Shown: piece by piece, positions 1-37,893 of the stretch
How positions within the stretch are numbered: the stretch's first letter is position 1
Layout of the letters: each line of letters begins with the position of its first letter
IMG/VR virus record: IMGVR_UViG_3300012667_001143
Span: 1 to 64,000 of that record
Origin: a virus
Taxonomy: Duplodnaviria > Caudoviricetes
Strand: one strand, 5' to 3'
Length of the DNA: 64,000 nucleotides
Program-made: the position numbers and the translations under genes
Notes under the pieces: model-generated
What the model was told of the DNA's origin: nothing
Database searches by the model: none
The model's input: only the letters and a program-made list of their open reading frames with translations

Positions 1-4
1 ATTT

Positions 5-3000
5 ATGGCATCATCAGTTCAAATACCAGTAACACAAACAGGTTTAGAAGCAAGCGTTCAAGCTGCATTAAAAAGCGTTGGCAAAAATGCTCAAATTAAT
101 TTGGGTACAAATGCTCGTCAGATCAATGCTTTAGCTCAACCTCTTGGTCGCATCACTGGACAAGCTGATGAATTTACAAAATCCATGGAAGCTGCAAATG
201 CTCGCGTATTTGCTTTCGGTGCTTCTGTTGGTATTATCAACAATATTTCTAAAGCTTTCGGCGCTCTCGTTAAGAATACAATTGCTGTAGAAAAATCTCT
301 TGTAGAAATTAATTCTGTTTTAGGAAAAAGCTCTTCTGAATTAGATAAGTTTGGATCTGATCTTTTTAAGATAGCTAAAAATACAGGACAATCTTTTGAA
401 GCTGTTTCTAAAGGAGCTTTAGAACTGGCTCGTCAGGGTCTTAAACCAGCAGAAACTCTTGAAAGACTCAATGACGCACTCATTCTAACTAGATTATCTG
501 GATTAGGTGCTGAAAAATCTGTAGAAGGTTTAACCGCAGCAGTAAACTCATTTAAAAGCACTGGTATCACTACTTCAGAAGTATTAAACAAGCTCGTCAA
601 TGTTTCTCAAAAATACGCCGTTTCCGAAAAGGATTTGATCGAAGGTTTAAAAAGATCTTCTTCTGTAGCTAAACAAGCTGGTGTTTCATTCGATGAACTT
701 GTTGGTGTTATAACAGCAGTCCAAGAAAAATCCGCTGTCGGTGGTGCAGTTATTGGTACATCGTTTAAAACCATTTTCTCTAGATTACAAAAAAGAGACA
801 CGCTGGATGCTCTGCAACAGTTGGGTGTAGAAGTCACTGATGTTCAAGGAAAAATATTACCAGCAACAAGACTCTTAGAAAATTTAGCTGTAAAAATCAA
901 AAGCCTTGATCAGATACAAATAGCGCAGATCACTGAAAAAGTTGGTGGTGGATATCAAATTGATAAATTGATTTCTGCATTGGACGATATGGGATCTAAA
1001 GGCTCTATTGCTTTTGACGCTACAAAAATTTCTGCCGAATCTGCAAATCAAGCTTATGCTAAAAATGCAGCGCTCAATAAAACACTCGCAAATTTAATCA
1101 ATCAAACTACATTAAGCGCTCAAGAACTTGGAGCGACACTTGGTAAGCTTGGAATCACTGATAGCGCCAAAAATCTACTTGGTTTCTTTAATAATCTTTT
1201 GGAAAGTATTCAAAAAATTCTTGGCGAAGAAAGTGCGCTTGGTGATGTTTTCAGAGGTCTTGCAAAAGGCATCGGTAACTTAGTTACAGGTCCAGGTTTA
1301 GCATTGTTTGGTGCTATTATTCTTAAACTGTCTAAGGATCTTGCTCAATTTGGTTTTGCAAGCTTGAAAAGTTTCTTTGGAATTGGTAAAGCAGCGAAAG
1401 AAGTTGAGACTCTTGAAAAATCTATTAATCAAGCTCTTACTTCTAATGTCAGATTACAACAGCAACTGTTCAACTTAGAGGGAAATAGAGCGGCACAGAT
1501 TCAGTTAATGGCACAAGCTGTCGTTCAGCAAGAAACTGCAATGAGAAGAATGGCTTCGATTTCAAGCTCATTGACTGGCCCTCTTTATCAAGCTGGTATA
1601 AGAGGAACAAGCGCTGGATTAAGAACCTCTCCTCCTAGAGCTGCTGGTGGATATATGCCAGCAGTTGCAAAAGAAAGCTCTGACATCAATCGCGGGGTTG
1701 GTGGAGCTAAATCTGGAGATCGTCCTGTTGTTATTCCTAATTTTAATTTTGGTGGTGGTAGAAAAGGTTCGATGGTTGCTCATACTGGTGAATATGCCGT
1801 TCCTAACTTTGCTGGAAGTGGTGGTACTGCAATTTTCAACAGAGACATGGTTCGTTCTATGGGCTTGCCATCTGGAGCCAAGAAGATCAATGCTGCTGGT
1901 GGATTGATTCCTAATTTTGCAAAGGTTTCCGACGTAACAAGATATTTTGCTTCTACTTTAGCTTCTCAAGTTAATAAGTCTCAATCTTCAGATGGGAGGT
2001 TATCTCCAGATGATTCCGTTAATTTAATTGGTAATAGATATAAAAAATTATATGTTCCTATTGGGAAAGGAGAGTCAAAAAAAGCTTATGAAGACAGAAT
2101 TATCAAACATTTTGGATACAGCACAGCAGGAATGGCTCGCGACGACCAATCAGCAGTAGATGGATATAAAAGCCCAACTTCTTTGTTGGAAGTTAAGGGT
2201 GGAAAATTCGACAAAAGCGATACAAAAATAAAATTTTTAAGAGCGAATATAGAAAATTACAATAAAAATAATCCTTTAGATTCTGTCTGGACTAAAAATA
2301 AAGACAATGTTAAAGTAGATGGTTTACTGGTTCATAGTAACAAAAAAGATGCAGAAAATTCATCAATACCAAACATATTTATTAAAGATCTAATCCAATC
2401 TGATAAATATAGAGCGAATAAACAACAAAAATCTAGAAAACTAGATAATACTGGAAAGTATATACAAAACCTAGCTTCTGGTTTCATCCCTAATTTCGCA
2501 GCTAGACCTAACGCCTCGGCTGATACTATACGCGCCGCCATCGACGAAGGAATTGAGGGATATAGAAGGCCAGGTCTAAATGAATACGGTCAGCCATTTA
2601 AAACTTACTGGTTTCCTGATGGAAGTCAAGCATCGCAAGGTCAAGTTGAAAAAGCTTTAAAACACAATCCATCTGTTGCGAGTGCTAAAAAGAAAGAAGA
2701 TGCGACAAAAAGACAAAAAAAGATTGATGAAAAAGGAGTCATGGACTTCACTATTGATGCCAATACTCTTGGAGGTATTGCTCTTGTAACCCCAGCTAGA
2801 GGAGGTTCTTCTGGAACGCTTTCTGCGCAAAGTTTGATGCAGAATCTTCCTAAAAAACCAGAAGGGTTTTTAATGGATGATAAGCTCATTATTAATAATA
2901 TTCAAAGCACTGGAGTCCCAACCCAAAAAGACTTTGAACAAATTTCAAGCGAAATCAATAAACGTTTTGCTGGTCCAATAGTCGATCTTGCTCAAAGCTT

Positions 3001-6000
3001 ATATGGAAAATTATATTCTGGAGCGAGTGGATCAGAGTTTGCGTCTCAGTTAGGACAGTTAAGATCAACATCAAAAGGTGGTATCTTGCCTCCAGGTGCT
3101 GAAGGTCAAATTTTTGAAGCTGCTGGTAAAGCGGCTTTGACAAGCATGAATCAAATAGCTTCTGCATTTGATCCTAGTAAGGAAAACAGACCATTTGACT
3201 TCACAAATGCAGCATCAATGAAAGAGATGTTGGGAGTAAAAGCTGTTAGAGGCGATGCTAAAAGAGCTGGAGGTTCGAATCGCCAATTCCAAGAAACAGT
3301 CAATGGATTAATTAAAAAATCAATTAACGATGAATCATTAAGACCTAAAATCTTTAGCCAAATCAAACAGCAAGCCAGTGGAAGAAAGCTTGCTGAAAAT
3401 GCTGCTGGAGGATACGTTCCAAACTTTGCTGATCCACTCAAAGAGGCTATAGGTCGTGAAATAGCTGCTGGTGTGCCAGCATCTCAAATCTACATCGACA
3501 AAAATCAGTCGCTGAAGAGCGCTGCAAACCCAATGGGGTTGATGGTTGCAAATCGTCGTGATGAACCTGCTGGTGGTCATCAAGGTATCAGCAGAGCAAT
3601 CAGAGAAGGTCGCGATCCAAAGACGTACGGTGCTGCGCGTGGATTCATGCCAAATTATGCTCCTCAAATTGGAGAAGTAGTAAGGGCAGATGTTGGAAAA
3701 ACACGAATTAGTGATATAGCAATAAATGATTTCAACAGTGCTTTAAAACAAATTTCAGATCAATTAAGAAAAGGATCGATGTCATTCGCTGATGTTGATG
3801 CTGAAATTAGAAAATTAGCAGTAGCTTCTGGAGCATCTAAGGGAGCGCAGCAAAAATTACGTACTGTTGGCGAATCTCTAGTAAGTGCATATAACAATGA
3901 ACTTATCGCTAGAAATGAAAAAGCAAAAGAACTCAAGCAACAAAGAGCAAATGATAGAATCAAAGAAGCTCCGTCAAAAGGAGGATCAGATATGCTTGGA
4001 ACTATTTTTGCAGTTCAGGGTGCCATGACCGCTTTAACAGGAGCAACAGAAGGAGCGACTAATGGATTTGCAAAATTCACAAATAGTTTTGCATCTTCTT
4101 TAGGAACAATAGCAACTACCGTTTTTGCAGTTCAAGGCATATCACAAGCTATTGGAAAAGAGGGAACTAAATTGGGAGCTGCAATAAAGGGAGTCGGAAC
4201 TGGATTGATTGGATTGACGGTTGCTCTTCAAGGTGTTTCTTTATTTTATTCGACACTAAAAAATATACGCAACGATTATCAAAAATCTAGCGAAGCATTA
4301 GCGGTATTTAATGATACAGCTCTTAAATTTGCAGATTATTTAGAAAATTCAGAAATTTTTAAAACTCAATCAACCAACACAGCCAAAAATATAACTAAAG
4401 ATGCTGAATATGAATTTTATAAGTCTAAGGGATTTAATGTTACAGGAGCTGCTTTGGATAAGCTTTCTGGCGATCAATTATCTGGTCGCGATGATGTATT
4501 GCAATATGTAGATAGAATTAGAAAAAGTGGCTTAATGTCAGATGAAGAATTAAAAGCAGCAATAACAAATATTAAAGAAGTTTCTGGCAATAATGCAGAA
4601 TTAGCCTCTGCAAAATTAGCTGAAATTGCCGCTAATTTAACTGAACAATCAAACTTCATTTTTAAAGATACTGAAAACTTCTTCAAAAAAGAAAGAACAC
4701 CGCAGGAAAGAGAAGATTTTACTAAAAAATATGAAAGAGCTGGAATTTCACAAAAAACAATAACTGGATACGTTGAAGCTTTCGAGAGAAAACGTAATGA
4801 ACAAGCAGAAGATAAACTTAGAATAGAAAGTGAAACGGTAGAGCAAATCAATATCTCTATTGCGCAAGATAAATTAAGAAATTCTATTGCAGAGGCAATT
4901 GCTAACTCAAGACGTTTTGAAAATGATTTATTAAATCAATCCCTATTGAGAGCCAGAGAATTGGGAAATCTTGATGAAAAAGGTTTGCGCGAACTAGAAG
5001 ATAAAATTGCATTACGCGACATTGATAGAAAACTAGAAGACGAAGCCGTTTCTTTAATTCAATCCCAAATTGATAAAGCCAAAGATATTGTAGCAAAAAA
5101 AGAAGAAGCTGTAAAACTGGAAGAAAAATTAAACAGCTTAACACCAGAACAACTGAGAAATAGCCAAGATGTTTTAAATATACTAAATGAAACAAATCAA
5201 CTATTATCTCAGGGGGCTAATTTATCGAATGCGGAGATTGATGCTGCTAAGGATAAATTAGCGAATTTATTAAAAAATTATGATTTGGATAAAAAATCTC
5301 TAATAGCAAATCAAGCGACAACGGAAGAGTACAAAGAACAAAATCGCCAACTTAATCTAATCAGTCAAGCTTCAAGAAGGGTATTAGAGGCACAGTCTTT
5401 TAGCAGAGAAATCGGAACAACAAGATCTGTCAATGCTAATGATTTGCGAGTTAGCGCACTCGAATCTTCTAAACTTGGTGCGTCTGATTCTCAAATTAGG
5501 CAGATTGATAAACAAATAGCCGCAATTAACGCCAATACAGTAGCTTTAGAGCAATCTCTTGCAAGAGAAAAAATATTTGACGACATGAAAAAAGAGTTGT
5601 CGGAAAATAATAAAATTACTGACGAAAATACTAAGGTACAGGTAGATAATCAAATAAAAGAAGCCAAAACAATAGATCAACTAGAAGGCTTAGCTTCTCT
5701 TATATTTATGTCAAGAGGAGGAATAGATCAAGCGTCTAATATAAGCGCAATGAATGATTTTTTTCAAAAATACCGACAGGATTTAGAGAGACAAGGCGAA
5801 GCTGACAAGCAAGCTAATGCAAAAGCCTCTGCCGATCTTCTTAATACGGGAAGAATATCTCCAGTTGTTAGTGCATTAGAAATGTTTAGGCGCTCTCTAC
5901 TTGAGACTTCTCAAATTATTGATCAAAAAATTCAAGATTTGGAATTAGAAAAATTAACCTCCATATCTGGAAGGAGAAACGCCGAAATTGCTTACGAAAT

Positions 6001-7651
6001 AGAAACTCTTAATCAGCAAAAAGGGCAAAGCCCAGAAGAGGCCGCAAGAATCGCAAGAGATAGACAAAACAAACCTTTAACTCAATTATTAAGCGAAGCT
6101 TTTTCTACCACAGAACAAGAAAGATCTATGAATTTGAAAAATTCAATTGTAGACGCTTCTGTTCAGTTTAAAAACAACATGATTGATGGTATCTCTGAAG
6201 CCATTGAAGGTGGAAAATCTCTTGGAGATGTTCTTCAAAGTTCTGCTTATGAATTCGTCAAAGCTATCAACAAACAATTAATGAGCAACGCTGTTGATAG
6301 TCTTGTTGGAGCTGGCAAGCAAGCTTCATCAGGTGGGTCTGGCTTCTTGGGCAATATAATGTCTTCTATTGGTTTTGCTTCTGGAGGAATGATTTCTGGA
6401 GGATCAGGAACAAAAGACGATGTTCCAGCGATGCTTATGGGTGGCGAATACGTCATCAATAAAAAGTCTGTTCAGAAATATGGCCCACAATTCTTAGAAG
6501 CATTGAACAAGGGAACAATTGGCGGATATGCTAAAGGCGGAAGAGTTCAAAGTGGAAAAGGAGGATTCTTTACTCCAGGAACTTATGGATTAGGTGGTAT
6601 TGAAGGAACAGGTAATTTATTAAAGTTTGCAACTCAAGCTTATACTTCTGGAAGTAGAGATTCAATCATAAATGCTGGCAATTATGCATCGATTGCTTTA
6701 GAGCCAGAAAGTGTTAGATTGACCAATTTCGGAAGAATGAATAGTCCTCAAGCAGCAGCCACAAGAGCTGCAAAAGAACAAGCTTTTGGTCTTTATTCTC
6801 AAGAAATGCAAGCTCAAGCAGAAGCAAAAAAACAAGCAGAAGCTGAAAAAGATGCATTCAAGAAACAGTTGATTATGCTTGGTATCAGCGTTGTTGGTGG
6901 AGCTGTTATGAAAGCTGGATCTGCTGGATTCAGCAATGCTATTAGATCAGGAGGAAGTTTAACAGAAGCGTTCAAAGGAGTTTGGAGCGGCAGTGGAGAC
7001 TTTGGAGGATTAAAGAATCTATTCAGCGGTAATTTCGCAGAATCTCAAGTTGGAAGCAATAAAGAATTAGCGGAGTATATCTTTAATAACTCCGATCTTG
7101 ATGCGAGGGAAGCATTGGAATACGCTTCTCAATTAACTGGAGAGCCGCTTGAATACAAAACACCATCATCAAGTTTCAATCCAGTGGGAACTGGACCATT
7201 CGATGCCCAAGGAAATTATATCGAAGCATGGGCCGATGATCCTTCTAAATGGAGAAAACAAGCTACTGGTGGAACAATTCCATCTATGGGTGGAGTCGAT
7301 ACAATTCCAGCAATGCTTTCTGGTGGCGAATTCATCATGAATCGCTCTGCTGCCCAAAACATCGGAGCTGGTAATCTTCAAGCTCTCAATGCGGGCGCAG
7401 GAAGCATCGTTACAGAAGAGAAGACTGAAGAGTTGAACGACAAGCTTATAGCTAAGCTCGACGAGCTTATCGAGGCTTCTGGAGGATCTGGTGGAATAAC
7501 CATCAACGTCGAAGGATCAACTGGCACAGCATCAGAAGAAAAAAGCGGCAATCCATCAGACCAAAAGCAACAGCTCGCTCGCCAAATCAGAGACGCTGTT
7601 CTCAAAGTTATTCAAGAAGAAAAGAGATTGGGAGGCTCATTGAGAAGATAA
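5..7651 (+). CDS. Phage tail tape measure protein (TP901-family N-terminal domain) with internal repeat-delimited modules
   Basis: 2548 aa. N-terminal Ala/Gly-rich helical TMP pattern (FKIAKNTGQSF..ELARQG..ALILTRLSGL), hydrophobic segments, long coiled coil, and the C-terminal TMP motif GG..D.(V/I)PAML.GGE twice. Followed by tail genes. Confidence 0.9.
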   Translation: MASSVQIPVTQTGLEASVQAALKSVGKNAQINLGTNARQINALAQPLGRITGQADEFTKSMEAANARVFAFGASVGIINNISKAFGALVKNTIAVEKSLVEINSVLGKSSSELDKFGSDLFKIAKNTGQSFEAVSKGALELARQGLKPAETLERLNDALILTRLSGLGAEKSVEGLTAAVNSFKSTGITTSEVLNKLVNVSQKYAVSEKDLIEGLKRSSSVAKQAGVSFDELVGVITAVQEKSAVGGAVIGTSFKTIFSRLQKRDTLDALQQLGVEVTDVQGKILPATRLLENLAVKIKSLDQIQIAQITEKVGGGYQIDKLISALDDMGSKGSIAFDATKISAESANQAYAKNAALNKTLANLINQTTLSAQELGATLGKLGITDSAKNLLGFFNNLLESIQKILGEESALGDVFRGLAKGIGNLVTGPGLALFGAIILKLSKDLAQFGFASLKSFFGIGKAAKEVETLEKSINQALTSNVRLQQQLFNLEGNRAAQIQLMAQAVVQQETAMRRMASISSSLTGPLYQAGIRGTSAGLRTSPPRAAGGYMPAVAKESSDINRGVGGAKSGDRPVVIPNFNFGGGRKGSMVAHTGEYAVPNFAGSGGTAIFNRDMVRSMGLPSGAKKINAAGGLIPNFAKVSDVTRYFASTLASQVNKSQSSDGRLSPDDSVNLIGNRYKKLYVPIGKGESKKAYEDRIIKHFGYSTAGMARDDQSAVDGYKSPTSLLEVKGGKFDKSDTKIKFLRANIENYNKNNPLDSVWTKNKDNVKVDGLLVHSNKKDAENSSIPNIFIKDLIQSDKYRANKQQKSRKLDNTGKYIQNLASGFIPNFAARPNASADTIRAAIDEGIEGYRRPGLNEYGQPFKTYWFPDGSQASQGQVEKALKHNPSVASAKKKEDATKRQKKIDEKGVMDFTIDANTLGGIALVTPARGGSSGTLSAQSLMQNLPKKPEGFLMDDKLIINNIQSTGVPTQKDFEQISSEINKRFAGPIVDLAQSLYGKLYSGASGSEFASQLGQLRSTSKGGILPPGAEGQIFEAAGKAALTSMNQIASAFDPSKENRPFDFTNAASMKEMLGVKAVRGDAKRAGGSNRQFQETVNGLIKKSINDESLRPKIFSQIKQQASGRKLAENAAGGYVPNFADPLKEAIGREIAAGVPASQIYIDKNQSLKSAANPMGLMVANRRDEPAGGHQGISRAIREGRDPKTYGAARGFMPNYAPQIGEVVRADVGKTRISDIAINDFNSALKQISDQLRKGSMSFADVDAEIRKLAVASGASKGAQQKLRTVGESLVSAYNNELIARNEKAKELKQQRANDRIKEAPSKGGSDMLGTIFAVQGAMTALTGATEGATNGFAKFTNSFASSLGTIATTVFAVQGISQAIGKEGTKLGAAIKGVGTGLIGLTVALQGVSLFYSTLKNIRNDYQKSSEALAVFNDTALKFADYLENSEIFKTQSTNTAKNITKDAEYEFYKSKGFNVTGAALDKLSGDQLSGRDDVLQYVDRIRKSGLMSDEELKAAITNIKEVSGNNAELASAKLAEIAANLTEQSNFIFKDTENFFKKERTPQEREDFTKKYERAGISQKTITGYVEAFERKRNEQAEDKLRIESETVEQINISIAQDKLRNSIAEAIANSRRFENDLLNQSLLRARELGNLDEKGLRELEDKIALRDIDRKLEDEAVSLIQSQIDKAKDIVAKKEEAVKLEEKLNSLTPEQLRNSQDVLNILNETNQLLSQGANLSNAEIDAAKDKLANLLKNYDLDKKSLIANQATTEEYKEQNRQLNLISQASRRVLEAQSFSREIGTTRSVNANDLRVSALESSKLGASDSQIRQIDKQIAAINANTVALEQSLAREKIFDDMKKELSENNKITDENTKVQVDNQIKEAKTIDQLEGLASLIFMSRGGIDQASNISAMNDFFQKYRQDLERQGEADKQANAKASADLLNTGRISPVVSALEMFRRSLLETSQIIDQKIQDLELEKLTSISGRRNAEIAYEIETLNQQKGQSPEEAARIARDRQNKPLTQLLSEAFSTTEQERSMNLKNSIVDASVQFKNNMIDGISEAIEGGKSLGDVLQSSAYEFVKAINKQLMSNAVDSLVGAGKQASSGGSGFLGNIMSSIGFASGGMISGGSGTKDDVPAMLMGGEYVINKKSVQKYGPQFLEALNKGTIGGYAKGGRVQSGKGGFFTPGTYGLGGIEGTGNLLKFATQAYTSGSRDSIINAGNYASIALEPESVRLTNFGRMNSPQAAATRAAKEQAFGLYSQEMQAQAEAKKQAEAEKDAFKKQLIMLGISVVGGAVMKAGSAGFSNAIRSGGSLTEAFKGVWSGSGDFGGLKNLFSGNFAESQVGSNKELAEYIFNNSDLDAREALEYASQLTGEPLEYKTPSSSFNPVGTGPFDAQGNYIEAWADDPSKWRKQATGGTIPSMGGVDTIPAMLSGGEFIMNRSAAQNIGAGNLQALNAGAGSIVTEEKTEELNDKLIAKLDELIEASGGSGGITINVEGSTGTASEEKSGNPSDQKQQLARQIRDAVLKVIQEEKRLGGSLRR
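1640..3661 (+). repeat. Five copies of peptide motif (A/L)A(G/S/R)G-x-x-PN(F/Y)A within the TMP
   Basis: AAGGYMPAVA 1640 (degenerate), AAGGLIPNFA 1892, LASGFIPNFA 2471, AAGGYVPNFA 3401, AARGFMPNYA 3632. Confidence 0.9.
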
Positions 7652-7652
7652 T

Positions 7653-8444
7653 ATGTTTGAACAAATCTCAAATGACGAAAACCAATTCTATATCTCTGGG
7701 CAACCATTGATTGGTGTTGAGAGCGCAGAAATCTCATACTCTCATTCCTCAAACATATTGAAGCCGCTTGGTTTTGGAATTGGATTTACAGTTGTTTCTG
7801 GACCCCAGCAGCAAACAGTATCGATATCTCAGAATATGATACATTCTGGCGGATTGATTAATTATACTGGTTCAAACAATATAAGCGGCAGTATCAATTA
7901 TAATGGAAATAACTATGGATTTCAAAGCGGTTACTTAACTAATTATTTAGTCAATTGTGCTGTTGGATCTATCCCAAAAATAACAAGCAATGTCACCGTT
8001 TATGATACTATGGTTACTGGCACAAAAAACGCGAGTGGTTCTGTTCCAGTTCCAACTGTTTATGTTCCAACACAAGGATCTATATCTTTAACTTGTGATA
8101 ATAGTACAACAAATAGAGTTGTAGGATTTGATTATTCAATTAAAATAGATAGAAGGCCAATTTATTCAATAGGCTCTATACTTCCAAAAGAAATAGTAAC
8201 AATGCCAGTTATTGAGTATTCTGCCAGTGTTCAGATAGATGTTGACGATGCATTTTTATCAGATAGCACTGGCTTTTTATCAGCGAGGCAAAATAAAGGT
8301 GTATCGTTTACTATAAAATCAAGAGACAACGCGCAAACGCTTCAGACACTAATTATACCAAAAGCTTCTTTAATATCTGAATCTTTATCAAGCTCTGCTG
8401 ACGGAGGAGTGAAGTTAACACTAAACTATATTGGACACTCATGA
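7653..8444 (+). CDS. Virion structural protein, tail tube-like
   Basis: Directly follows the TMP; beta-rich; shares a VGFDYSIKIDRRPIYSIG / LQSFSLDLDLARTDLYGLG motif with 9391..10602. Confidence 0.55.
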   Translation: MFEQISNDENQFYISGQPLIGVESAEISYSHSSNILKPLGFGIGFTVVSGPQQQTVSISQNMIHSGGLINYTGSNNISGSINYNGNNYGFQSGYLTNYLVNCAVGSIPKITSNVTVYDTMVTGTKNASGSVPVPTVYVPTQGSISLTCDNSTTNRVVGFDYSIKIDRRPIYSIGSILPKEIVTMPVIEYSASVQIDVDDAFLSDSTGFLSARQNKGVSFTIKSRDNAQTLQTLIIPKASLISESLSSSADGGVKLTLNYIGHS

Positions 8445-15748: not shown

Positions 15749-16720
15749 ATGATTTTTGAAGAACAGATATCGAGAAAACCAAACCATTACCCGTGGACTG
15801 AGGATTTTATTGAGGCAATGCATAATGGATTTTGGACAGACAAAGAATTCTCTTTCAAGTCTGATGTGCAGCAATTTAAGGTGGATCTCTCGGAAAGAGA
15901 TCGCGAAGTGGTCGTCAGAACTCTTTCTGCGATTGGCCAAATCGAAGTGGCAGTGAAGACCTTTTGGGCAAAGCTCGGAGACAATCTTCCTCATCCATCG
16001 CTGCAAGACTTGGGCTACGTAATGGCGAACATTGAAGTCATTCACAATAATGCTTATGAGAGATTGCTTACCGTTTTGGATCTTGAGGATGTCTTCGATC
16101 AAAACCTCAAGCTTGATTGGATTCAGGGAAGAGTGAAGTACCTAAAGAAATATACTCACAGATTCTACAAGGATAGCAAAAAGCAATATCTTTACGCATT
16201 GATTCTTTTTACTCTTTTCGTTGAGAACGTTTCTTTGTTTAGTCAGTTTTACATCATTAATTGGTTCTCTTCTTTCAAAAATGTCTTGAAAGATACCGAT
16301 CAACAGGTAAAATACACGCGCAATGAAGAGTTGATTCATGCTCTTGTTGGAATGAAGATCGTAAACACGATCAGGGAGGAGTATCCAGATCTGATTGATG
16401 ATGAGTTTTCTCAGAGGATTGCTAACGAAGCCAAGGAGGCTTTTGACGCAGAATCTAAGATTATCGATTGGATGGTAAACGGAATTGATGAAAAAGGGTT
16501 GTCCGCTCCAATCTTGAAAGAGTTCGTTAAAAATAGAATTAACGAGTCCCTCGTTCAAATTGGATTTGATAAGGTTTTTGATGTTGATCAGGAACTTATC
16601 GGTGAGACCCTTTGGTTTCAAGAACAGCTGCTTGGAAATAATATGACAGATTTTTTCCATGGTAGACCCGTTGAGTACAGCAAGAAGAATCAATCATTCG
16701 ACGAAGACGATTTATTTTAA
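15749..16720 (+). CDS. nrdB: Ribonucleotide reductase beta subunit (class Id/NrdBi-like)
   Basis: Ferritin-like ligands QIEVAVK, EVIHNNAY, VENVSLFSQF, EELIH. Confidence 0.93.
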   Translation: MIFEEQISRKPNHYPWTEDFIEAMHNGFWTDKEFSFKSDVQQFKVDLSERDREVVVRTLSAIGQIEVAVKTFWAKLGDNLPHPSLQDLGYVMANIEVIHNNAYERLLTVLDLEDVFDQNLKLDWIQGRVKYLKKYTHRFYKDSKKQYLYALILFTLFVENVSLFSQFYIINWFSSFKNVLKDTDQQVKYTRNEELIHALVGMKIVNTIREEYPDLIDDEFSQRIANEAKEAFDAESKIIDWMVNGIDEKGLSAPILKEFVKNRINESLVQIGFDKVFDVDQELIGETLWFQEQLLGNNMTDFFHGRPVEYSKKNQSFDEDDLF

Positions 16721-16721
16721 T

Positions 16722-18374
16722 ATGAGCAAAGATATTTATTGGTTAAACAAGGACTCTAGAAAGTTCCTCGAAAGAGGATACCTTCTTGAAGGTGAAACGG
16801 CAGAAGGTAGAATTCGCGATATTTCGGAGCATGCAGAAGCTTTGCTTGGAATAAAAGGATTCGCTGATAAATTCGAGCGTTACATGCATCTTGGATTTTA
16901 TTCATTGTCTTCTCCTATTTGGTCTAATTTTTCAAGAAAGAGGGGTCTTCCAATTTCTTGTTTCGGAAGTTATATCGAGGATACTCTTGAGTCCATTACT
17001 GGTCACAAGTATTCAGAAGTTTCCATGATGACTAAAGCTGGAGGTGGTACCAGCGCTTATTTTGGTGCGATCCGTGGTAGGGGAGCAGAAATTTCCAGCG
17101 GTGGAAAATCAACAGGATCTGTGCATTTCATGGAGCTTTATGAAAAGCTTATGAATGTTGTTTCCCAAGGAAATGTTCGTCGTGGCAGTTTCGCGGCTTA
17201 TCTTCCCATCGACCATCCAGACATCGAAGAATTCTTAAAAATTCGTGGGGATGGAAACAGCATCCAAGATATGTCTATTGGTGTTTGTGTGTCTAATGAG
17301 TGGATGAAAAAAATGATCGATGGCGACAAAGATTGCCGTAAGATTTGGGGTCTAGTTATTAAAAAGCGGTTTGAAAGTGGATACCCTTATATTTTCTTTT
17401 CTGACAACGCAAATAATCAAGCTCCACAAGTTTATAAGGACAAGGGATTAACTATTCATAATAGCAATCTCTGTAATGAAATTATGCTTTCTAATTCCGC
17501 TGATGAGTCTTTTGTTTGCAACCTTTCATCGCTTAATTTAGAAAAGTGGGAAGATATTGAAAAGACAGATGCTGTAGAAACACTTGTGTTTTTCTTGGAC
17601 GCTGTAATGACTGAGTTTATTGATAAAACAGAGTCTATGCCTTTCATGGATGCTCCTAGAAAATTTGCAATCAATCAACGCGCATTGGGAGTTGGAATTC
17701 TTGGTTGGCACTCTTATCTTCAATCAAAGATGGTTTCATTCGAATCTATGGATGCCAAGATTGAAAACATTAGTATCTGGAAAACTATTAGAGAGCGTTG
17801 CGACAAAGCTAGTGAATACCTTGCTTCTCTATTTGGCGAAGCTCCGCTTCTTGAAGGATACGGCAGAAGAAACTCAACAACTATTGCTGTTGCTCCAACC
17901 ACTTCGAGTTCGTTTATTCTTGGGCAAGTGTCTCCATCTATTGAGCCACTTAACAGCAATTACTTTGTAAAAGACTTGGCGAAGGGTAAGTTCACTTATC
18001 GTAATCCACATCTTGAAAAACTGTTAGACTCTAAGGGTAAAAATGATCAAGAAACATGGATGAAGATTCTTGTTAGCGGCGGAAGCGTTCAGTCTCTTGA
18101 TTTTCTTTCTGAAGAAGAAAAAGATGTATTCAAGACATTCGGGGAGATTTCTCAAAAAGAGATTATTATTCAAGCGGCTCAACGTCAAAAGTATATTGAT
18201 CAAGGCCAAAGCTTAAATATCATGGTTCCTCCAATGGCAAAACCAAAAGATGTGAATGAGTTAATGATCTTTGCTTGGGAAAATGGAATCAAGGGTTTGT
18301 ATTATCAACGCAGTGCAAATCCAGCTCAAGAGCTTGCAAGATCAATTCTTTCATGTAAAAGTTGCGAAGCTTAA
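16722..18374 (+). CDS. nrdA: Ribonucleotide reductase alpha subunit (no ATP cone)
   Basis: PISCF, SNLCNEI, VCNLSSLNL, APTTSSS, GLYYQRS, C-terminal CKSCEA. Start at MSKDIYW. Confidence 0.95.
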   Translation: MSKDIYWLNKDSRKFLERGYLLEGETAEGRIRDISEHAEALLGIKGFADKFERYMHLGFYSLSSPIWSNFSRKRGLPISCFGSYIEDTLESITGHKYSEVSMMTKAGGGTSAYFGAIRGRGAEISSGGKSTGSVHFMELYEKLMNVVSQGNVRRGSFAAYLPIDHPDIEEFLKIRGDGNSIQDMSIGVCVSNEWMKKMIDGDKDCRKIWGLVIKKRFESGYPYIFFSDNANNQAPQVYKDKGLTIHNSNLCNEIMLSNSADESFVCNLSSLNLEKWEDIEKTDAVETLVFFLDAVMTEFIDKTESMPFMDAPRKFAINQRALGVGILGWHSYLQSKMVSFESMDAKIENISIWKTIRERCDKASEYLASLFGEAPLLEGYGRRNSTTIAVAPTTSSSFILGQVSPSIEPLNSNYFVKDLAKGKFTYRNPHLEKLLDSKGKNDQETWMKILVSGGSVQSLDFLSEEEKDVFKTFGEISQKEIIIQAAQRQKYIDQGQSLNIMVPPMAKPKDVNELMIFAWENGIKGLYYQRSANPAQELARSILSCKSCEA

Positions 18375-32425: not shown

Positions 32426-33054
32426 AAGAAGAACTACTTAGGTTTCAAAGAAACCAAAAATATCTAATCATCGATACTGAGACCGAAGGGCTTAACTTGG
32501 TTAAGTCTCGACCTTGGCAATGCGCTTGGATTACTACTGTCGGCAAGAACATCGTTGAAAAGAACGATAGATATATCAAATGGGACAACCTTCAGGTCTC
32601 AGAAGGTGCCGCCAAGATCACTGGATTTTCTGAAGAACAGTATCTCCGCAGGGCGGAAGATCCAAAGAAGGTTTGGAGAGATCTTTCTAAATATCTGTTC
32701 GATCCAGAATATATCGTTATTGGCCAAAACATTTTGGGCTTCGATGTTTATATGTTGAATATTTGGCTGAAGGGTATTGGTCAAAACAGTGATTATTCTT
32801 ATTTGCCAAGAGTGATTGATACGAAGTCTTTATCTACAGCTATTTTTAAAAATATCTTGCCAGATCGTCAAAACTTTTTATCTTGGCAGTATAAACTACT
32901 CAATCATAAAGAAAAAGGCTTGAAGACATCTCAGGCTAGTATGCTTAAGCATTACAATATTCCTCATGATCCCAAAAAACTGCACGATGCTCTTTATGAC
33001 ATCGAAATGACTTTCCAAATTTTCCTAAAACAAATCTACGATATCGAAGTATGA
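32422..33054 (+). CDS. DEDDh 3'-5' exonuclease (DnaQ/epsilon-like)
   Basis: IIDTETEGL, GQNILGFD, IDT, LHDALYD. Confidence 0.88.
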   Translation: MKEELLRFQRNQKYLIIDTETEGLNLVKSRPWQCAWITTVGKNIVEKNDRYIKWDNLQVSEGAAKITGFSEEQYLRRAEDPKKVWRDLSKYLFDPEYIVIGQNILGFDVYMLNIWLKGIGQNSDYSYLPRVIDTKSLSTAIFKNILPDRQNFLSWQYKLLNHKEKGLKTSQASMLKHYNIPHDPKKLHDALYDIEMTFQIFLKQIYDIEV

Positions 33055-35609
33055 AAGAGCTATTTACTGAATACCAAAATCCATTTCCAGCGGGCGTTAA
33101 ACTGCCAACTATTCACATCGAGCAGAAGTATTACGACTTGCTTGGTTGTAGTTCTGAAATCAGCAATTTCAACTTCTTGAGAAAGCTTTGTTTTTGGGGT
33201 GTTAAGAATCGTAGTATTGACAAGCTGAAAAACAAACAAGAATACTATGATCGTCTCACTATGGAGCTTTCTGTGTTTGAAGAACTAGGTTTCGTGGACT
33301 ATGTTCTTTTGAATTGGGACGTTCTTAATTTCTGTCACGAATCTGGAATTCCTACTGGTGCTGGTCGAGGCAGTGCCGCTGGTTCTCTTGTTCTTTATGT
33401 GGTTGGCGTAACTAATATCGATCCAATCAAATACGATCTATTCTTCGAAAGATTTGTTTCTAAGAGTCGAGCCAAAAAGATCTTCTCTAATGGGGAAGAA
33501 TTCCTTGATGGAAGTCTTGCTCCAGACGTAGACAACGACATCAGCTATGATCGTCGTCAAGAAGTTATCGATTATATTAATAATAAATACAAAGGCAAAA
33601 CATCCAAGATCCTCACTCTCAATACCCTTAGTAGCAAATTGTGCATTAAGGAGTGTGGCAAGATTGTCGGAGAAATGTCTGAATCTTCTGTAAACGAAGT
33701 TAGTGATACTATTCCAAAGAAGTTCGGAAAAGTCGCTAAGTTGAGCGATGCCTTTGCTGAAAGCGAATCCTTTAAAAGCTTCGCTTTGCAGAACAAAAAG
33801 ATTTATAGTATTGCTAAGAAAATCGAAGGACTAACAAAGAATACTGGTGTTCATCCTTCTGGTATCGCAATCAGCTATTATAAAATGGATGATATTATGC
33901 CGATGCAAAGCACTGGCGAAGGAGCCATTATGTCTGGATACGACATGAATAACGTTTCAGAGCTTTCTGTTAAATTTGATATTCTTGGGCTTAGAACTCT
34001 CTCTGTCGTTCACGACGTATGCCGCCAGATCGGTATAAAGGCATCAGAAATCGATGTAGACCATCCGAGTATCTATGCCGCACTACAGACTCTCAAAGCG
34101 CCTAGCGGGCTGTTCCAGATCGAAGCTGATACCAATTTTAAGGTAGCTCAGAAAGTTGCTCCAAAAAACCTTGAGCAGTTGTCTGCTGTGGTTGCTATTG
34201 CAAGACCAGGCGCTCTTGATTTCATGGATCGGTATGCTGATTATGCTCGCAATGGAGAGTTCCAATCTGTTCATCCATTCTTCGACGATGTTCTCAGTTA
34301 TACAGGAGGAATTCCTCTTTATCAGGAACAGTTGATGAAGATGGCAACAAAGGTTGGATTCAGCTTGGATGAATCTGAGCAGCTTCGTCGAATTGTTGGC
34401 AAAAAGAAGGTCGATCAAATGGTTGCTTGGCAGCAAAAAATCAGAGACAAGGTTCTTGAGAATAATCTAGATCCAGTCATTGCTGACGTTCTTTGGAAAG
34501 TCGCAGAAGACTCTGCAAATTATTCTTTCAATAAGAGCCATAGTATCTCATATGCCAATCTTGCGGCTATTACTCTTTATTTGAAATTTAATTATCCTCA
34601 AGAATTCTTCCTTAGCTTGTTGAAGTATGCTCAGTTCGAGCCTAATCCTCACGAAGAAATTCATAAGATTACACAGGAGCTTAGTTATTTCGACATTAAG
34701 CTTTTACCTCCAGATCTTTCTAAGTCTCAAATTGACTTCTGTATCGAAGGCAAGGATATTCGTTATGGACTGAATACAATCAAGGGTGTGTCAACTAAGG
34801 TTCTAGAGTCTCTTCTAGAATTTAGAGAGTCTGAATTCGCGAATAAATACGAAGTCTTTATTGCCGCTAAGCAAGTTGGTGTAAATATTGGTGTTCTTTC
34901 TGCGCTTATTCAAGCAGGTGTGCTAGACGCTTTTGTTAAGAAAGATCGTTGCCGTCTTGTGTTAGAAGCTCAAACCTTCAACACTCTAACAGATAGAGAA
35001 AAAAGAAACTTTATCTCACTTGGCGAAAAATACGATTTCGATATTCTTGAATCAATCAGCGCTTCGGTGAAAGATTCTTTGATTGGAGACGATAACAAAA
35101 AGATCTTTTCTGAGAAAAGATTTGAGACCTTTAAAAAGAAATACAATCCATATAAAGAAATCTACGAGAAGAACAAAAAGCATTTGAAGTTTGCTAATTG
35201 GCATTTCGAATCAAAGCTTCTTGGCTATAGCTATTCGCAGAATATTCGGGAGATTTTCAAAAATGAAATTGGTGGAGATCTCGTTTCGTCTAACACTGTT
35301 TCCAATCAGGAAAATAATAGCGTCGTGAGATTTGTCGGCACTGTCTTGGATGTGATTTCCAGAACAAGCGCCAACGGAAATAAATATGCTAGAATTGAAC
35401 TTTCGGATGAAACTGGAAATCTAACAGCCCTGCTACTGGATTCTGCGCGTGAGGCAAAATACTCTCAATATATTCAATCTGGTAAAACGCTGCCCAAAAA
35501 AGGAGGAATCGTTATTTTGATTGGCAAGAAAAACAACGATATTGTCATTATCGATAAAATGTCCTTGCTTGAAGACAAAATCTATATGAAACTTTCGGAA
35601 GTCAAATAA
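33051..35609 (+). CDS. dnaE: DNA polymerase III alpha catalytic core (lacks PHP)
   Basis: GRGSAAGSLV, FERF, PDVDND, GVHPSG, KFDILGL, YQEQLM, YSFNKSH, C-terminal OB fold. Confidence 0.95.
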   Translation: MKELFTEYQNPFPAGVKLPTIHIEQKYYDLLGCSSEISNFNFLRKLCFWGVKNRSIDKLKNKQEYYDRLTMELSVFEELGFVDYVLLNWDVLNFCHESGIPTGAGRGSAAGSLVLYVVGVTNIDPIKYDLFFERFVSKSRAKKIFSNGEEFLDGSLAPDVDNDISYDRRQEVIDYINNKYKGKTSKILTLNTLSSKLCIKECGKIVGEMSESSVNEVSDTIPKKFGKVAKLSDAFAESESFKSFALQNKKIYSIAKKIEGLTKNTGVHPSGIAISYYKMDDIMPMQSTGEGAIMSGYDMNNVSELSVKFDILGLRTLSVVHDVCRQIGIKASEIDVDHPSIYAALQTLKAPSGLFQIEADTNFKVAQKVAPKNLEQLSAVVAIARPGALDFMDRYADYARNGEFQSVHPFFDDVLSYTGGIPLYQEQLMKMATKVGFSLDESEQLRRIVGKKKVDQMVAWQQKIRDKVLENNLDPVIADVLWKVAEDSANYSFNKSHSISYANLAAITLYLKFNYPQEFFLSLLKYAQFEPNPHEEIHKITQELSYFDIKLLPPDLSKSQIDFCIEGKDIRYGLNTIKGVSTKVLESLLEFRESEFANKYEVFIAAKQVGVNIGVLSALIQAGVLDAFVKKDRCRLVLEAQTFNTLTDREKRNFISLGEKYDFDILESISASVKDSLIGDDNKKIFSEKRFETFKKKYNPYKEIYEKNKKHLKFANWHFESKLLGYSYSQNIREIFKNEIGGDLVSSNTVSNQENNSVVRFVGTVLDVISRTSANGNKYARIELSDETGNLTALLLDSAREAKYSQYIQSGKTLPKKGGIVILIGKKNNDIVIIDKMSLLEDKIYMKLSEVK

Positions 35610-35628: not shown

Positions 35629-37893
35629 ATGGATATTCAAAAAATCAACTTTACTTCTAGTGCTTCTAGATCTATTGATCAACTAGAAGATTATGCAAAT
35701 CTTAAGCATCATGCATATCCAGATGCTGTTCACTTGTTCTACTTGTGTTTCAAAAATTCTAGCGGGTGCTTTTTAAACTTTCTTGTCAGCAGGGGCATTG
35801 ATATTTCATTTCTCAAGCTAGAAAAGTGTTTGGAGAAATTTGTCAAAGAATCAGGCGCAAATGAAAAGCCAAGTAAAAACACAAAGATCTCAAAAAATTT
35901 AGAAAAGCTTATAAAAGCATCCTATTCTCTTTGCAAGAAATATGAACACGCTTACGTTGGAACTGAGCATATTATTTACGGCTTTTTAGAAAACACTGAT
36001 AAGTTTTGTGATATGCTTCTGTCAATGGATATTGACACTGAGCATTTGAAGCTTTCTGTCTTGGCGTTTCTTGCTGGAGAAAATCCAAACACTGGATTTG
36101 GCGACGAAGGATTTGCTTTTGATGAGGATGAAGAAGACGAAGATGAATTTGCCGAATCTGATGTAAGCCACTTAAATAAGTATTGCTTGCTTTTGAATGA
36201 GCATGTAAAAAATCCATCGTTCCCAATTATTTCTGGTAGAGACAAAGAAATCAATCTGATGCAGGAGGTTCTGTGTCGTAAACAAAAAAGCAATTGTATT
36301 TTAATTGGCGAAGCTGGAACAGGCAAAACAACAATCGTCGAAGGATTGACTCAGTTGATTGAAAGCCCAAATTACGATGGTCCACTACTCAATAAAAAGG
36401 TATATTCACTTGATTTGGGTTCTTTGATTGCAGGAACTAAATACCGAGGGCAATTCGAAGCTCGATTCAGTAAGCTTCTTTCTGAGTTAAAGGAAACACC
36501 AAACAGTATTTTATTCATTGATGAAATTCACACTATTATTGGAGCTGGCGGCAAAGAAGGTTCTCAGGATTTTGCCAATATGATTAAGCCAGCTTTGGCT
36601 AGAGGAGAAATCAAATGCATTGGAGCCACGACATCTGCTGAATATAAAAAGCATTTTGAAAAGGATGCCGCTTTGACTCGACGATTTCATCCTGTCTACG
36701 TAGAAGAACCTTCGATTGAAGATGTTGCTTCAATGGTCAAGGGCGCTCTTCCTAGCTATGAATCTCATCATAATGTAAAGTTTTCGCCTTCGCTTGCTTC
36801 TTTGTCTATTAAGCTTTGTGAAACTTATTTGCCGAATCAGCGTTTCCCAGATAAAGTTTTTGATGTGATTGATCAATCCTCTTCAAAAGCTAGAATTAGA
36901 AATAAAAAGAAATCCGCCAAGGTATTGATTGATGATGTTTATTCTGTCATCGCTGATAAAATCAACGTTGATGTTCAAACGATCAAAGAGTCCAATAATA
37001 AAAAATTCCACACATTCGAGTCTTCTTTGAACGATAGTATTTTCGGTCAGAAGAATAACGTTTCTAAGATTTATGATTTGTTGGCTTGTGCAAAAGCTGG
37101 ACTGCAAAATCCAGACAAGCCTATTGCCAGTTTCTTCTTCGTTGGACCAACAAGCGTTGGAAAAACCTTTACTGCAAAACAAATAGCTAAGCAGTTCTAT
37201 GGAAACGAAAAAAGCTTTTTGCAATTGAATATGAGCGAGTATCAAGAGCAGGCTTCTATCTCTAGGCTCATTGGAGCAAGTGCTGGCTATGTTGGTTATG
37301 AAGAAGGAGGTATTCTAACAGAATTTGTTCGAAAGAATCCGAACAGTCTTATTCTTTTTGATGAAGCTGAAAAATGCAATCCAAACGTTCTTAATTTACT
37401 GCTTCAGATTTTGGACGAAGCTTGCTTGAACGATAACCTTAATCGCTCTATCGATTTTTCTAGATGCATTGTCGTAATGACTAGCAACATCGGTGTCGCG
37501 CAGGCAGATTCTCCTCAATTAGGCTTTGCTCCGCAGCAGATTGATAAAGAGCAGTCTTACAAGGATTCCGTGAAGAAGTCTCTGCCTCCAGAGCTTATTT
37601 CCAGAATCGATGAGCTTATTGTTTTTGACTCTCTCGACAAAGAATCTATTTGCAAGATCTTTCAATCAAGACTGAATGATATCAGCAAAAAAACTGAATT
37701 AAATAACATCAAGCTCAATTTTGAGATCAGTGCTTCTGATTTTATTGATTTTAATATGAATGATCACGCTAGAGACATCAAAAAAATCGTTCGCCAAGGA
37801 ATCGAGATTCCCCTCGCAAAATTCTTGGTTCAGAATTCGAAACTGAGCGAAGTCTCTGTGAAAATGCTTGACGGAAAGCTGAACATCTGCTAA
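35629..37893 (+). CDS. ClpA/ClpC-family AAA+ unfoldase
   Basis: Clp_N (YVGTEHI), GEAGTGKT, AGTKYRGQFE, FIDEIH, GPTSVGKT, GYVGYEEGG, LFDEAEK, LGF loop. Confidence 0.93.
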   Translation: MDIQKINFTSSASRSIDQLEDYANLKHHAYPDAVHLFYLCFKNSSGCFLNFLVSRGIDISFLKLEKCLEKFVKESGANEKPSKNTKISKNLEKLIKASYSLCKKYEHAYVGTEHIIYGFLENTDKFCDMLLSMDIDTEHLKLSVLAFLAGENPNTGFGDEGFAFDEDEEDEDEFAESDVSHLNKYCLLLNEHVKNPSFPIISGRDKEINLMQEVLCRKQKSNCILIGEAGTGKTTIVEGLTQLIESPNYDGPLLNKKVYSLDLGSLIAGTKYRGQFEARFSKLLSELKETPNSILFIDEIHTIIGAGGKEGSQDFANMIKPALARGEIKCIGATTSAEYKKHFEKDAALTRRFHPVYVEEPSIEDVASMVKGALPSYESHHNVKFSPSLASLSIKLCETYLPNQRFPDKVFDVIDQSSSKARIRNKKKSAKVLIDDVYSVIADKINVDVQTIKESNNKKFHTFESSLNDSIFGQKNNVSKIYDLLACAKAGLQNPDKPIASFFFVGPTSVGKTFTAKQIAKQFYGNEKSFLQLNMSEYQEQASISRLIGASAGYVGYEEGGILTEFVRKNPNSLILFDEAEKCNPNVLNLLLQILDEACLNDNLNRSIDFSRCIVVMTSNIGVAQADSPQLGFAPQQIDKEQSYKDSVKKSLPPELISRIDELIVFDSLDKESICKIFQSRLNDISKKTELNNIKLNFEISASDFIDFNMNDHARDIKKIVRQGIEIPLAKFLVQNSKLSEVSVKMLDGKLNIC

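Follow-up and report, generated by a model that had tools for sequence, protein, structure and literature searches.

Phage tape measure proteins (TMPs) are usually seen as rulers and channel formers, and the enzyme carried by the TMP of phage P23-45 was itself a surprise. The locus described here raises the question whether a TMP can also carry a series of enzyme-like domains which are exchanged between phages. It lies in the first 64 kb (positions 1 to 64,000, here called the window) of the IMG/VR viral contig IMGVR_UViG_3300012667_001143, which is 96.6 kb long and estimated to be 87% complete. An open reading frame on the plus strand (5–7651) encodes 2,548 amino acids without an internal stop codon and represents a TP901-type TMP. 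The original prediction, made from the DNA letters alone, proposed that five copies of a repeated peptide divide this protein into modules, that the two long modules contain nuclease signatures, and that the peptide is a boundary for recombination and/or cleavage of payload domains delivered with the genome. We found that related phages add, drop and replace cassettes in this protein and that the junctions lie exactly at the repeated motif.

All five motif copies were recovered at the predicted positions by a motif search and by a direct-repeat search. They follow the pattern [AS][AS]xG[FY][IVLM]P(N/A)[FYV]A (n = 5) and form, at the DNA level, one family of 32-nt direct repeats (starting at 1637, 1889, 2468, 3398 and 3629) which are 69–81% identical to the reference copy. 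Two half-motifs, IPNFNFGGG and VPNFAGSGG, are located within the first short module, m1. The exact tetrapeptide PNFA occurs four times in the protein, whereas just 1.4% of shuffled versions of the protein contain it at all. Relatives were collected from eight IMG/VR loci, an exhaustive HMMER search with the first long module (cassette 1) and a region search, which together yielded 55 non-identical TMPs of 2,154–3,728 aa; in these proteins, too, the motif separates modules. Each contains 3–11 copies of [FYLWM][IVMLF]PN[FY] with the core G-[FY]-[IVL]-P-N-[FY]. The glycine preceding the aromatic residue, a position left free by the search pattern, is present in 100% of the 249 distinct motif instances; alanine follows the core in 75% and Ala-Ala precedes it in 65–71% of them.

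The 99 motif copies for which DNA was available use all four codons each for glycine, proline and alanine, and both codons for asparagine and phenylalanine. Because all synonymous codons are used within the motif, it is conserved as a peptide and not as DNA; it is foremost a functional peptide and only secondarily a handy in-frame junction. In an AlphaFold2 (AF2) model covering two domains, the motif lies within the only long stretch of low confidence (model residues 173–194), with predicted local distance difference test (pLDDT) values of 31–55 between domains with values of about 90 and 70–93. Interpretations of the motif as an intein, a 2A-like skipping site or a sortase-type signal were rejected by sequence inspection alone, as the defining residues are absent. 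A full-text literature search for the motif peptide returned nothing relevant, and a published description of this architecture was not found.

The stretches between motifs in the 55 TMPs comprise 255 modules in 48 families, 23 of which are singletons. Their order is fixed: an N-terminal part of 547 aa is followed by GGYMPAVA, m1 (74 aa) and an exchangeable position named slot A, then by family 1, zero to four variable cassettes, family 0, the motif G[FY]VPNYA and the C-terminal part of the TMP. Slot A is occupied by one of at least seven unrelated families. Family 1, to which the second long module of the window TMP (cassette 2) belongs, is found in 44 of the 55 proteins and family 0 (67 aa) in 52. 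The number of cassettes ranges from one to about nine per TMP, and the motifs are irregularly spaced at distances of 54–986 aa. A profile search with family 0 detected the terminal module in at least 158 IMG/VR contigs of about 12–200 kb, and 80 further IMG/VR loci carrying it contributed 227 more cassettes belonging to 72 families.

The exchange is seen in a comparison of the window TMP with the relative P0019, which is 90% identical in the N-terminal part, 92% in m1, 92% in family 1 and 96% in family 0. A homologue of cassette 1 is absent from P0019; its slot A holds an unrelated cassette of 208 aa, and two extra cassettes are present. The same behaviour was observed for P0022. In side-by-side alignments, identity stops or restarts at most one to two residues from the motif. 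The expectation of conserved flanks around inter-motif modules that differ in both number and identity was thus borne out by the alignment of related TMPs, and the motif does act as an exchange boundary, yet one conserved in its amino acids. Ratios of nonsynonymous to synonymous substitution rates (dN/dS) against the relative P0002 were 0.09 for the N-terminal part, 0.13 for m1 and 0.05 for family 0, compared with 0.37 for cassette 1 and 0.20 for cassette 2. By this measure the cassettes are under purifying selection yet evolve much faster than the scaffold. Four TMPs, those of L005 (IMGVR_UViG_3300046000_006661), P0030, P0034 and P0042, contain an internal second copy of the terminal family 0 module; these proteins (3,199–3,728 aa) resemble a tandem fusion of two entire arrays.

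In the window TMP, slot A is occupied by cassette 1 (family 2, 183 aa). Its string YEDR..SAVDG..LLEVKG, predicted to be an E..D..(D/E)xK signature of the PD-(D/E)xK nuclease fold, is indeed present with E57, D80, E90 and K92 (nt 2090, 2159, 2189 and 2195), and all four residues are invariant across 12 homologues of 29–63% identity. The core of the AF2 model (pLDDT about 90) consists of a helix (residues 53–63) containing E57, a strand (81–84) after D80, a strand (87–92) containing E90 and K92, a helix (98–111) and a strand (129–138); the modelled topology would fit the alpha-beta-beta-beta-alpha-beta core. Structural matches obtained with VIA were weak, but every match over model residues 37–156 was a PD-(D/E)xK nuclease, namely FAN1, Hjc, two CdiA-CT toxins and arenavirus L endonucleases. 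With its invariant residues, modelled topology and the uniform class of these weak matches, cassette 1 fits the proposed PD-(D/E)xK core and is a nuclease-like candidate. The two-domain model had no Foldseek match at E ≤ 0.001 in PDB or BFVD, and a feature search of the ESM Atlas gave no usable match for cassette 1. Homologues were found at the same slot of giant TMPs and in two shorter entries, P0004 and P0005, which have PNF-type motifs of their own and look like pieces of TMPs.

Cassette 1 had also been described as visibly more AT-rich than its flanks. Its GC content is in fact low (0.306 compared with 0.379 for the whole gene), but this is not a sign of foreign origin: the dip is compositional, reflecting a Lys/Asn/Ile-rich protein, because the GC content at third codon positions (0.197) differs little from the value for the conserved N-terminal part (0.211), and the stretch of the same gene at nt 4200–6000 is equally AT-rich.

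For cassette 2 (300 aa) the predicted signature IFEAA..PFDF..GDAKR is likewise present (E at nt 3116, D at nt 3197, D at nt 3254, K at nt 3260). In an alignment of 14 sequences of 18–91% identity, G24, E28, D55 and K76 of the C-terminal core do not vary, and only D or E occurs at position 74. The conserved E/D/[DE]xK set therefore stands, whereas a fold could not be assigned: the modelled topology is non-canonical and no fold match stood out in structure comparisons or in a PDB sequence search. An earlier AF2 model calculated from five sequences reached a pLDDT of 45 and was discarded. Cassette 1 and the core of cassette 2 are unrelated according to hhalign, and neither cassette gave a significant match in Pfam, PHROGs or PDB sequence searches. 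Two profile searches covering near and longer protein lengths did not find cassette 2 as a free-standing protein or in a shorter fusion.

Other cassettes of the family include recognisable enzymes. GNAT acetyltransferase domains scored above the Pfam cut-off in two cassette families of distant relatives, and 3 of the 72 representatives of the further families had any Pfam match (including GNAT and SNase, the latter in one representative with E = 2.6e-5); the remaining 69 had none. Cassettes of distant relatives at L015:7291-7815, L017:4540-5652, L015:6760-7260 and L012:5407-6528 showed GNAT and weak P-loop NTPase matches. Motifs seen by eye in cassettes of P0011 (HExxH, HAD-like and ParB-like) were not supported by Pfam, and no claim is made for them. 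Cell-wall-degrading domains were located elsewhere: a phage lysozyme (P0046, aa 2448–2572) and a GH19 domain (P0050, aa 2347–2398) lie in the C-terminal TMP part outside the PNFA array. As these domains of two relatives sit there, the array would not seem to be the part which breaches the envelope.

Taken together, residues 546–1219 of the window TMP may be regarded as a payload bay of independently folded modules connected by disordered linkers, each of which contains the motif [AS][AS]xG[FY][IVL]PN[FY]A. The bay would be opened by m1 and closed by family 0, both small and highly constrained, and would hold two cassettes in this phage, one PD-(D/E)xK-type and nuclease-like, the other a near-universal 300-aa cassette with an E/D/[DE]xK set. 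As expected from established TMP biology, the protein would leave the tail tube at infection and thereby bring its cassettes to the host envelope or cytoplasm; the tail probably delivers ready-made enzymes into the host, for which P23-45 gp96 is a precedent (PMC10770324). More tentatively, the motif would be a processing site related to the cut in phage T5 pb2, from which the cassettes are freed as separate proteins. As the same peptide frames every cassette, any in-frame exchange at the motif would yield a functional TMP, which would explain the mosaic. For this interpretation as a whole, comprising the module chain, TMP-borne delivery, processing at the motif and motif-based exchange, we estimate about even chances.

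The resemblance to T5 concerns the site at which pb2 is cut, after R1127 (PMC10038345), within the sequence GIGNANSFVPR/AEGG (slash, cut). Scored with a position-specific scoring matrix (PSSM) of the motif limited to positions -6 to +2, this site ranks first among the 1,204 positions of pb2, with 7.8 bits compared with 0.4 for the next; a score as high was reached anywhere in 64 of 3,000 shuffles (2.1%). With the full 16-column PSSM the cut site ranks third. The mechanism by which TMPs get cut in T5 and lambda is unknown (PMC12617516). In lambda gpH (L022, gene H) the best PSSM match is KDSFGGMIPMFRGLAG at residues ~101–116, just before the predicted N-terminal hydrophobic segment; its score is low (5.2) and it is not near the known C-terminal cut. 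It is conceivable, though we hold it only tentatively, that G[FY][IV]PN[FY]A is the same kind of cleavage signal as in T5 pb2 and perhaps lambda gpH. The TMP of this siphophage clade would then be a polyprotein with a cut at each motif copy, and reprogrammable free enzymes would be injected by the tail (nucleases, acetyltransferases and many of unknown fold) ahead of the DNA.

Several observations weigh against the payload-bay interpretation. Ejection, cleavage and enzymatic activity are inferred, and three copies of folded domains of 20–35 kDa have no obvious fit in the lumen of a tail tube. The likeness to T5 comprises the N-terminal half of the motif only (R-A in T5, N-F-A here), and since the sub-motif was picked after the fact the link is suggestive, not proof. 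A protease gene was not found beside the TMP gene. The description as an enzyme payload holds for only a few cassettes, given the 3 of 72 families with Pfam matches. Cassette 1 had no match in Pfam, with the VRR_NUC model (PF08774) on the contig or in a PDB profile search; in the model of cassette 2 a helix lies between the strand carrying D and the [DE]xK strand, a non-canonical arrangement, and its fold has no assignment.

The main rival to cleavage is that the motif is a docking peptide, bound at intervals to the chaperone of tail assembly, to the lumen of the tube or to another TMP chain as partner. It would keep a TMP interrupted by globular domains competent for assembly, and the cassettes would remain covalently attached and do their work from the TMP channel in the envelope. 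Selection as a peptide and a position in disordered linkers would be expected for any short linear binding motif, and that a protease was not found nearby suits this explanation as well. The array lies between two hydrophobic segments and could be placed on the cytoplasmic side of a membrane-inserted TMP, and the RNA polymerase of P23-45 gp96 is proposed to function in the fused state (PMC10770324). On the other hand, in its N-terminal half the motif coincides with the single TMP cleavage site that has been mapped, that of T5; seven consecutive residues are near-invariant among TMPs which are ~20–40% identical in aligned cassettes, more like a protease site than a chaperone contact; and the irregular spacing of 54–986 aa does not favour docking. 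We consider docking possible but doubtful.

We regard it as unlikely that the cassettes are structural elements instead of effectors, serving as length or assembly spacers, plugs or aids of envelope penetration with conserved acidic and lysine residues kept for folding or metal binding and without nuclease activity on host targets. The near-universal occurrence of family 1 and of the scaffold modules would suit a central role in the virion, no Pfam match exists for 69 of the 72 cassette families, and the domains known to be embedded in TMPs mostly attack the cell wall (PMC12617516). The recognisable cassettes, however, are GNAT, SNase and PD-(D/E)xK-like and do not belong to the cell-wall enzymes, relatives carry their lysozyme and GH19 domains elsewhere in the TMP, and the variation from one to about nine cassettes with unrelated replacements at the same slot is hard to square with a fixed role. 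That the motif acts mainly as DNA, a recombination hotspot of ~30 nt without peptide function, is highly improbable, for despite the 32-nt repeat family and the coincidence of exchange junctions with the motif, its third codon positions are free, its amino acids are invariant at a TMP identity of ~20–40% in aligned cassettes, and 70–80% identity over 30 nt is a poor substrate for homologous recombination.

The identification of the gene as a TMP gene was supported by the PF10145 match and by matches to nine TMP PHROGs. Based on this domain and on its position in the tail module, the protein is assigned to the TP901 family, with a predicted role in the tail lumen and in tail length. The contig begins 4 nt 5' of the start codon; the gene is nevertheless complete, because its N-terminus agrees with that of full-length relatives, for instance P0002, which likewise starts with MASSVQIPV. 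A peptidase family was not detected in the protein by Pfam. The C-terminal region, including the motif DDVPAMLMGGEYVIN, is common to hundreds of annotated TMPs. The consensus of this motif is G.D.[VI]PAML.GGE[FY][VI].N, and each of its two copies is preceded by GG.I. A peptide in m1, GEYAVPNF, looks like this C-terminal motif. The PNFA motif may, as judged from sequence, be derived from it. Coordinates of all features are listed in the table.

Table. Features of the TMP gene in the window (nucleotide positions).
Feature	Position	Strand	Remarks
Complete TMP gene	5..7651	+	Start codon and N-terminus agree with full-length relatives
PhageMin_Tail (PF10145) domain	374..943 (aa 125-314)	+	Pfam E 9.7e-31, 107.6 bits (cut-off 33.2)
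Hydrophobic segment, N-terminal side of array	1265..1336 (aa 421-444)	+	
Motif copy 1, variant AAGGYMPAVA, opens array	1640..1669	+	Position shared by every close relative (aa ~547-555)
Scaffold module m1 (74 aa)	1670..1891	+	Identity to relatives 74-97%; dN/dS 0.13
Motif copy 2, AAGGLIPNFA, left junction of slot A	1892..1921	+	
Cassette 1 (family 2, 183 aa), PD-(D/E)xK-like nuclease candidate	1922..2470	+	Conserved residues, AF2 model, weak structural matches
Motif copy 3, LASGFIPNFA, right junction of slot A	2471..2500	+	Linker in model, pLDDT 31-55
Cassette 2 (family 1, 300 aa)	2501..3400	+	In 44/55 TMPs; conserved residues at nt 3116, 3197, 3254, 3260
Motif copy 4, AAGGYVPNFA	3401..3430	+	
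Terminal scaffold module (family 0, 67 aa)	3431..3631	+	Under the strongest constraint within the gene (dN/dS 0.05)
Motif copy 5, variant AARGFMPNYA, closes array	3632..3661	+	
Gly/Ala-rich hydrophobic segments, C-terminal side of array	4085..4261 (aa 1361-1419)	+	
C-terminal TMP motif DDVPAMLMGGEYVIN, copy 1 of 2	6423..6460	+	Motif search, direct-repeat search
C-terminal TMP motif, copy 2 (DTIPAMLSGGEFIMN), ATGGTIPSMGG just before	7305..7342	+	Motif search, direct-repeat search

Downstream of the TMP gene, minor tail genes are conserved across relatives; the gene at 8441–9394 matches the minor tail protein phrog_14, and a gpL-like PF05939 gene occupies the same position in relatives. The genes found upstream of the TMP gene in relatives are absent from the 87%-complete contig. 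A gene for a lambda J-like central tail fibre (54620–58819, minus strand) lies on the opposite strand and far from the TMP gene, so that the tail genes are arranged in two distant blocks. The contig also encodes a ribonucleotide reductase and a DNA polymerase (16659–18374 and 33051–35609, plus strand). A 754-aa two-ring AAA+ unfoldase of the ClpA/ClpB type (35629–37893, plus strand; Clp_N, AAA, AAA_2 and ClpB_D2-small) matches phrog_4871, annotated as 'ATP-dependent protease'. Searches of 50,697 GenBank phages by tblastn and megablast gave zero matches for nt 1601–3700 or nt 1–8000, and the terminal module, used twice to scan 185,579 species genomes, did not reveal a prophage relative.

These results describe a large uncultured clade, represented by no fewer than 55 distinct TMPs and by at least 158 IMG/VR contigs, in which the TMP would serve as a rack for exchangeable payloads with a fixed grammar. 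If the cassettes are delivered, they represent a new and rich source of early-acting phage effectors, most of which (69 of 72) belong to no family in Pfam. Should the motif be a cleavage site, it would provide a sequence handle on how and where TMPs are cut, a question open since the 1970s, which would become testable in T5; non-contractile tails would then possess a general and modular route of protein delivery. The framing peptide, a natural in-frame junction, might also make it possible to insert other domains into a TMP.

Among known systems, gp96 of the Thermus phage P23-45 is likewise a giant TMP with a folded enzyme, the virion RNA polymerase, in its N-terminal part, which reaches the host with the tail contents (PMC10770324). 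It carries one fixed enzyme at the extreme N-terminus and has no delimiting motif, cassette exchange or reported processing, whereas the exchangeable modules of the window TMP form an array inside the protein, and one and the same peptide frames each of them. In T5, pb2 is cut during maturation into pb2* and pb2C between a hydrophobic stretch and an enzymatic domain, and the site NANSFVPR/A resembles NAxG[FY][IV]P (PMC10038345). This is a single site near the C-terminus which frees a peptidoglycan peptidase; it lacks the N-F-A half and is not part of an array. Polyvalent proteins also combine unrelated enzyme domains, among them nucleases and GNAT, in one giant polypeptide believed to accompany the DNA into the host and to undergo processing into units (PMC5512222). 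Such several unrelated effector-type domains, by which polyvalent proteins are recognised, occur across the present family, and the window TMP itself contains two nuclease-like cassettes. Polyvalent proteins are head, internal or conjugation proteins, typically with a zincin-like peptidase domain, and their survey nowhere mentions TMPs (PMC5512222); here the carrier is a TMP, a peptidase domain was not detected in it, and a conserved linker peptide frames the units.

Polymorphic toxins such as CdiA-CT, Rhs and MuF-toxin fusions combine a conserved delivery scaffold with exchanged payloads, each carrying a single C-terminal toxin with an adjacent immunity gene. The present TMPs share with them variable payloads on a conserved scaffold, and two of the weak matches of cassette 1 are CdiA-CT nuclease toxins. 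Unlike in these toxins, the cassettes are internal and multiple, one of them is near-universal, no immunity gene is implied, and conserved tail genes follow the TMP gene. The description as a polymorphic effector system, given in the original prediction, is accordingly a loose fit, as it involves no immunity gene and as cassette 2 is near-universal (44 of the 55 TMPs) and not variable. The Sle1-type TMP-related effectors of actinobacterial contractile injection systems are similar in that a TMP-derived scaffold with a reconfigurable domain is packed in a tail-like tube and ejected (PMC13277306); they belong to a bacterial injection system and have one C-terminal functional domain and no repeated motif.

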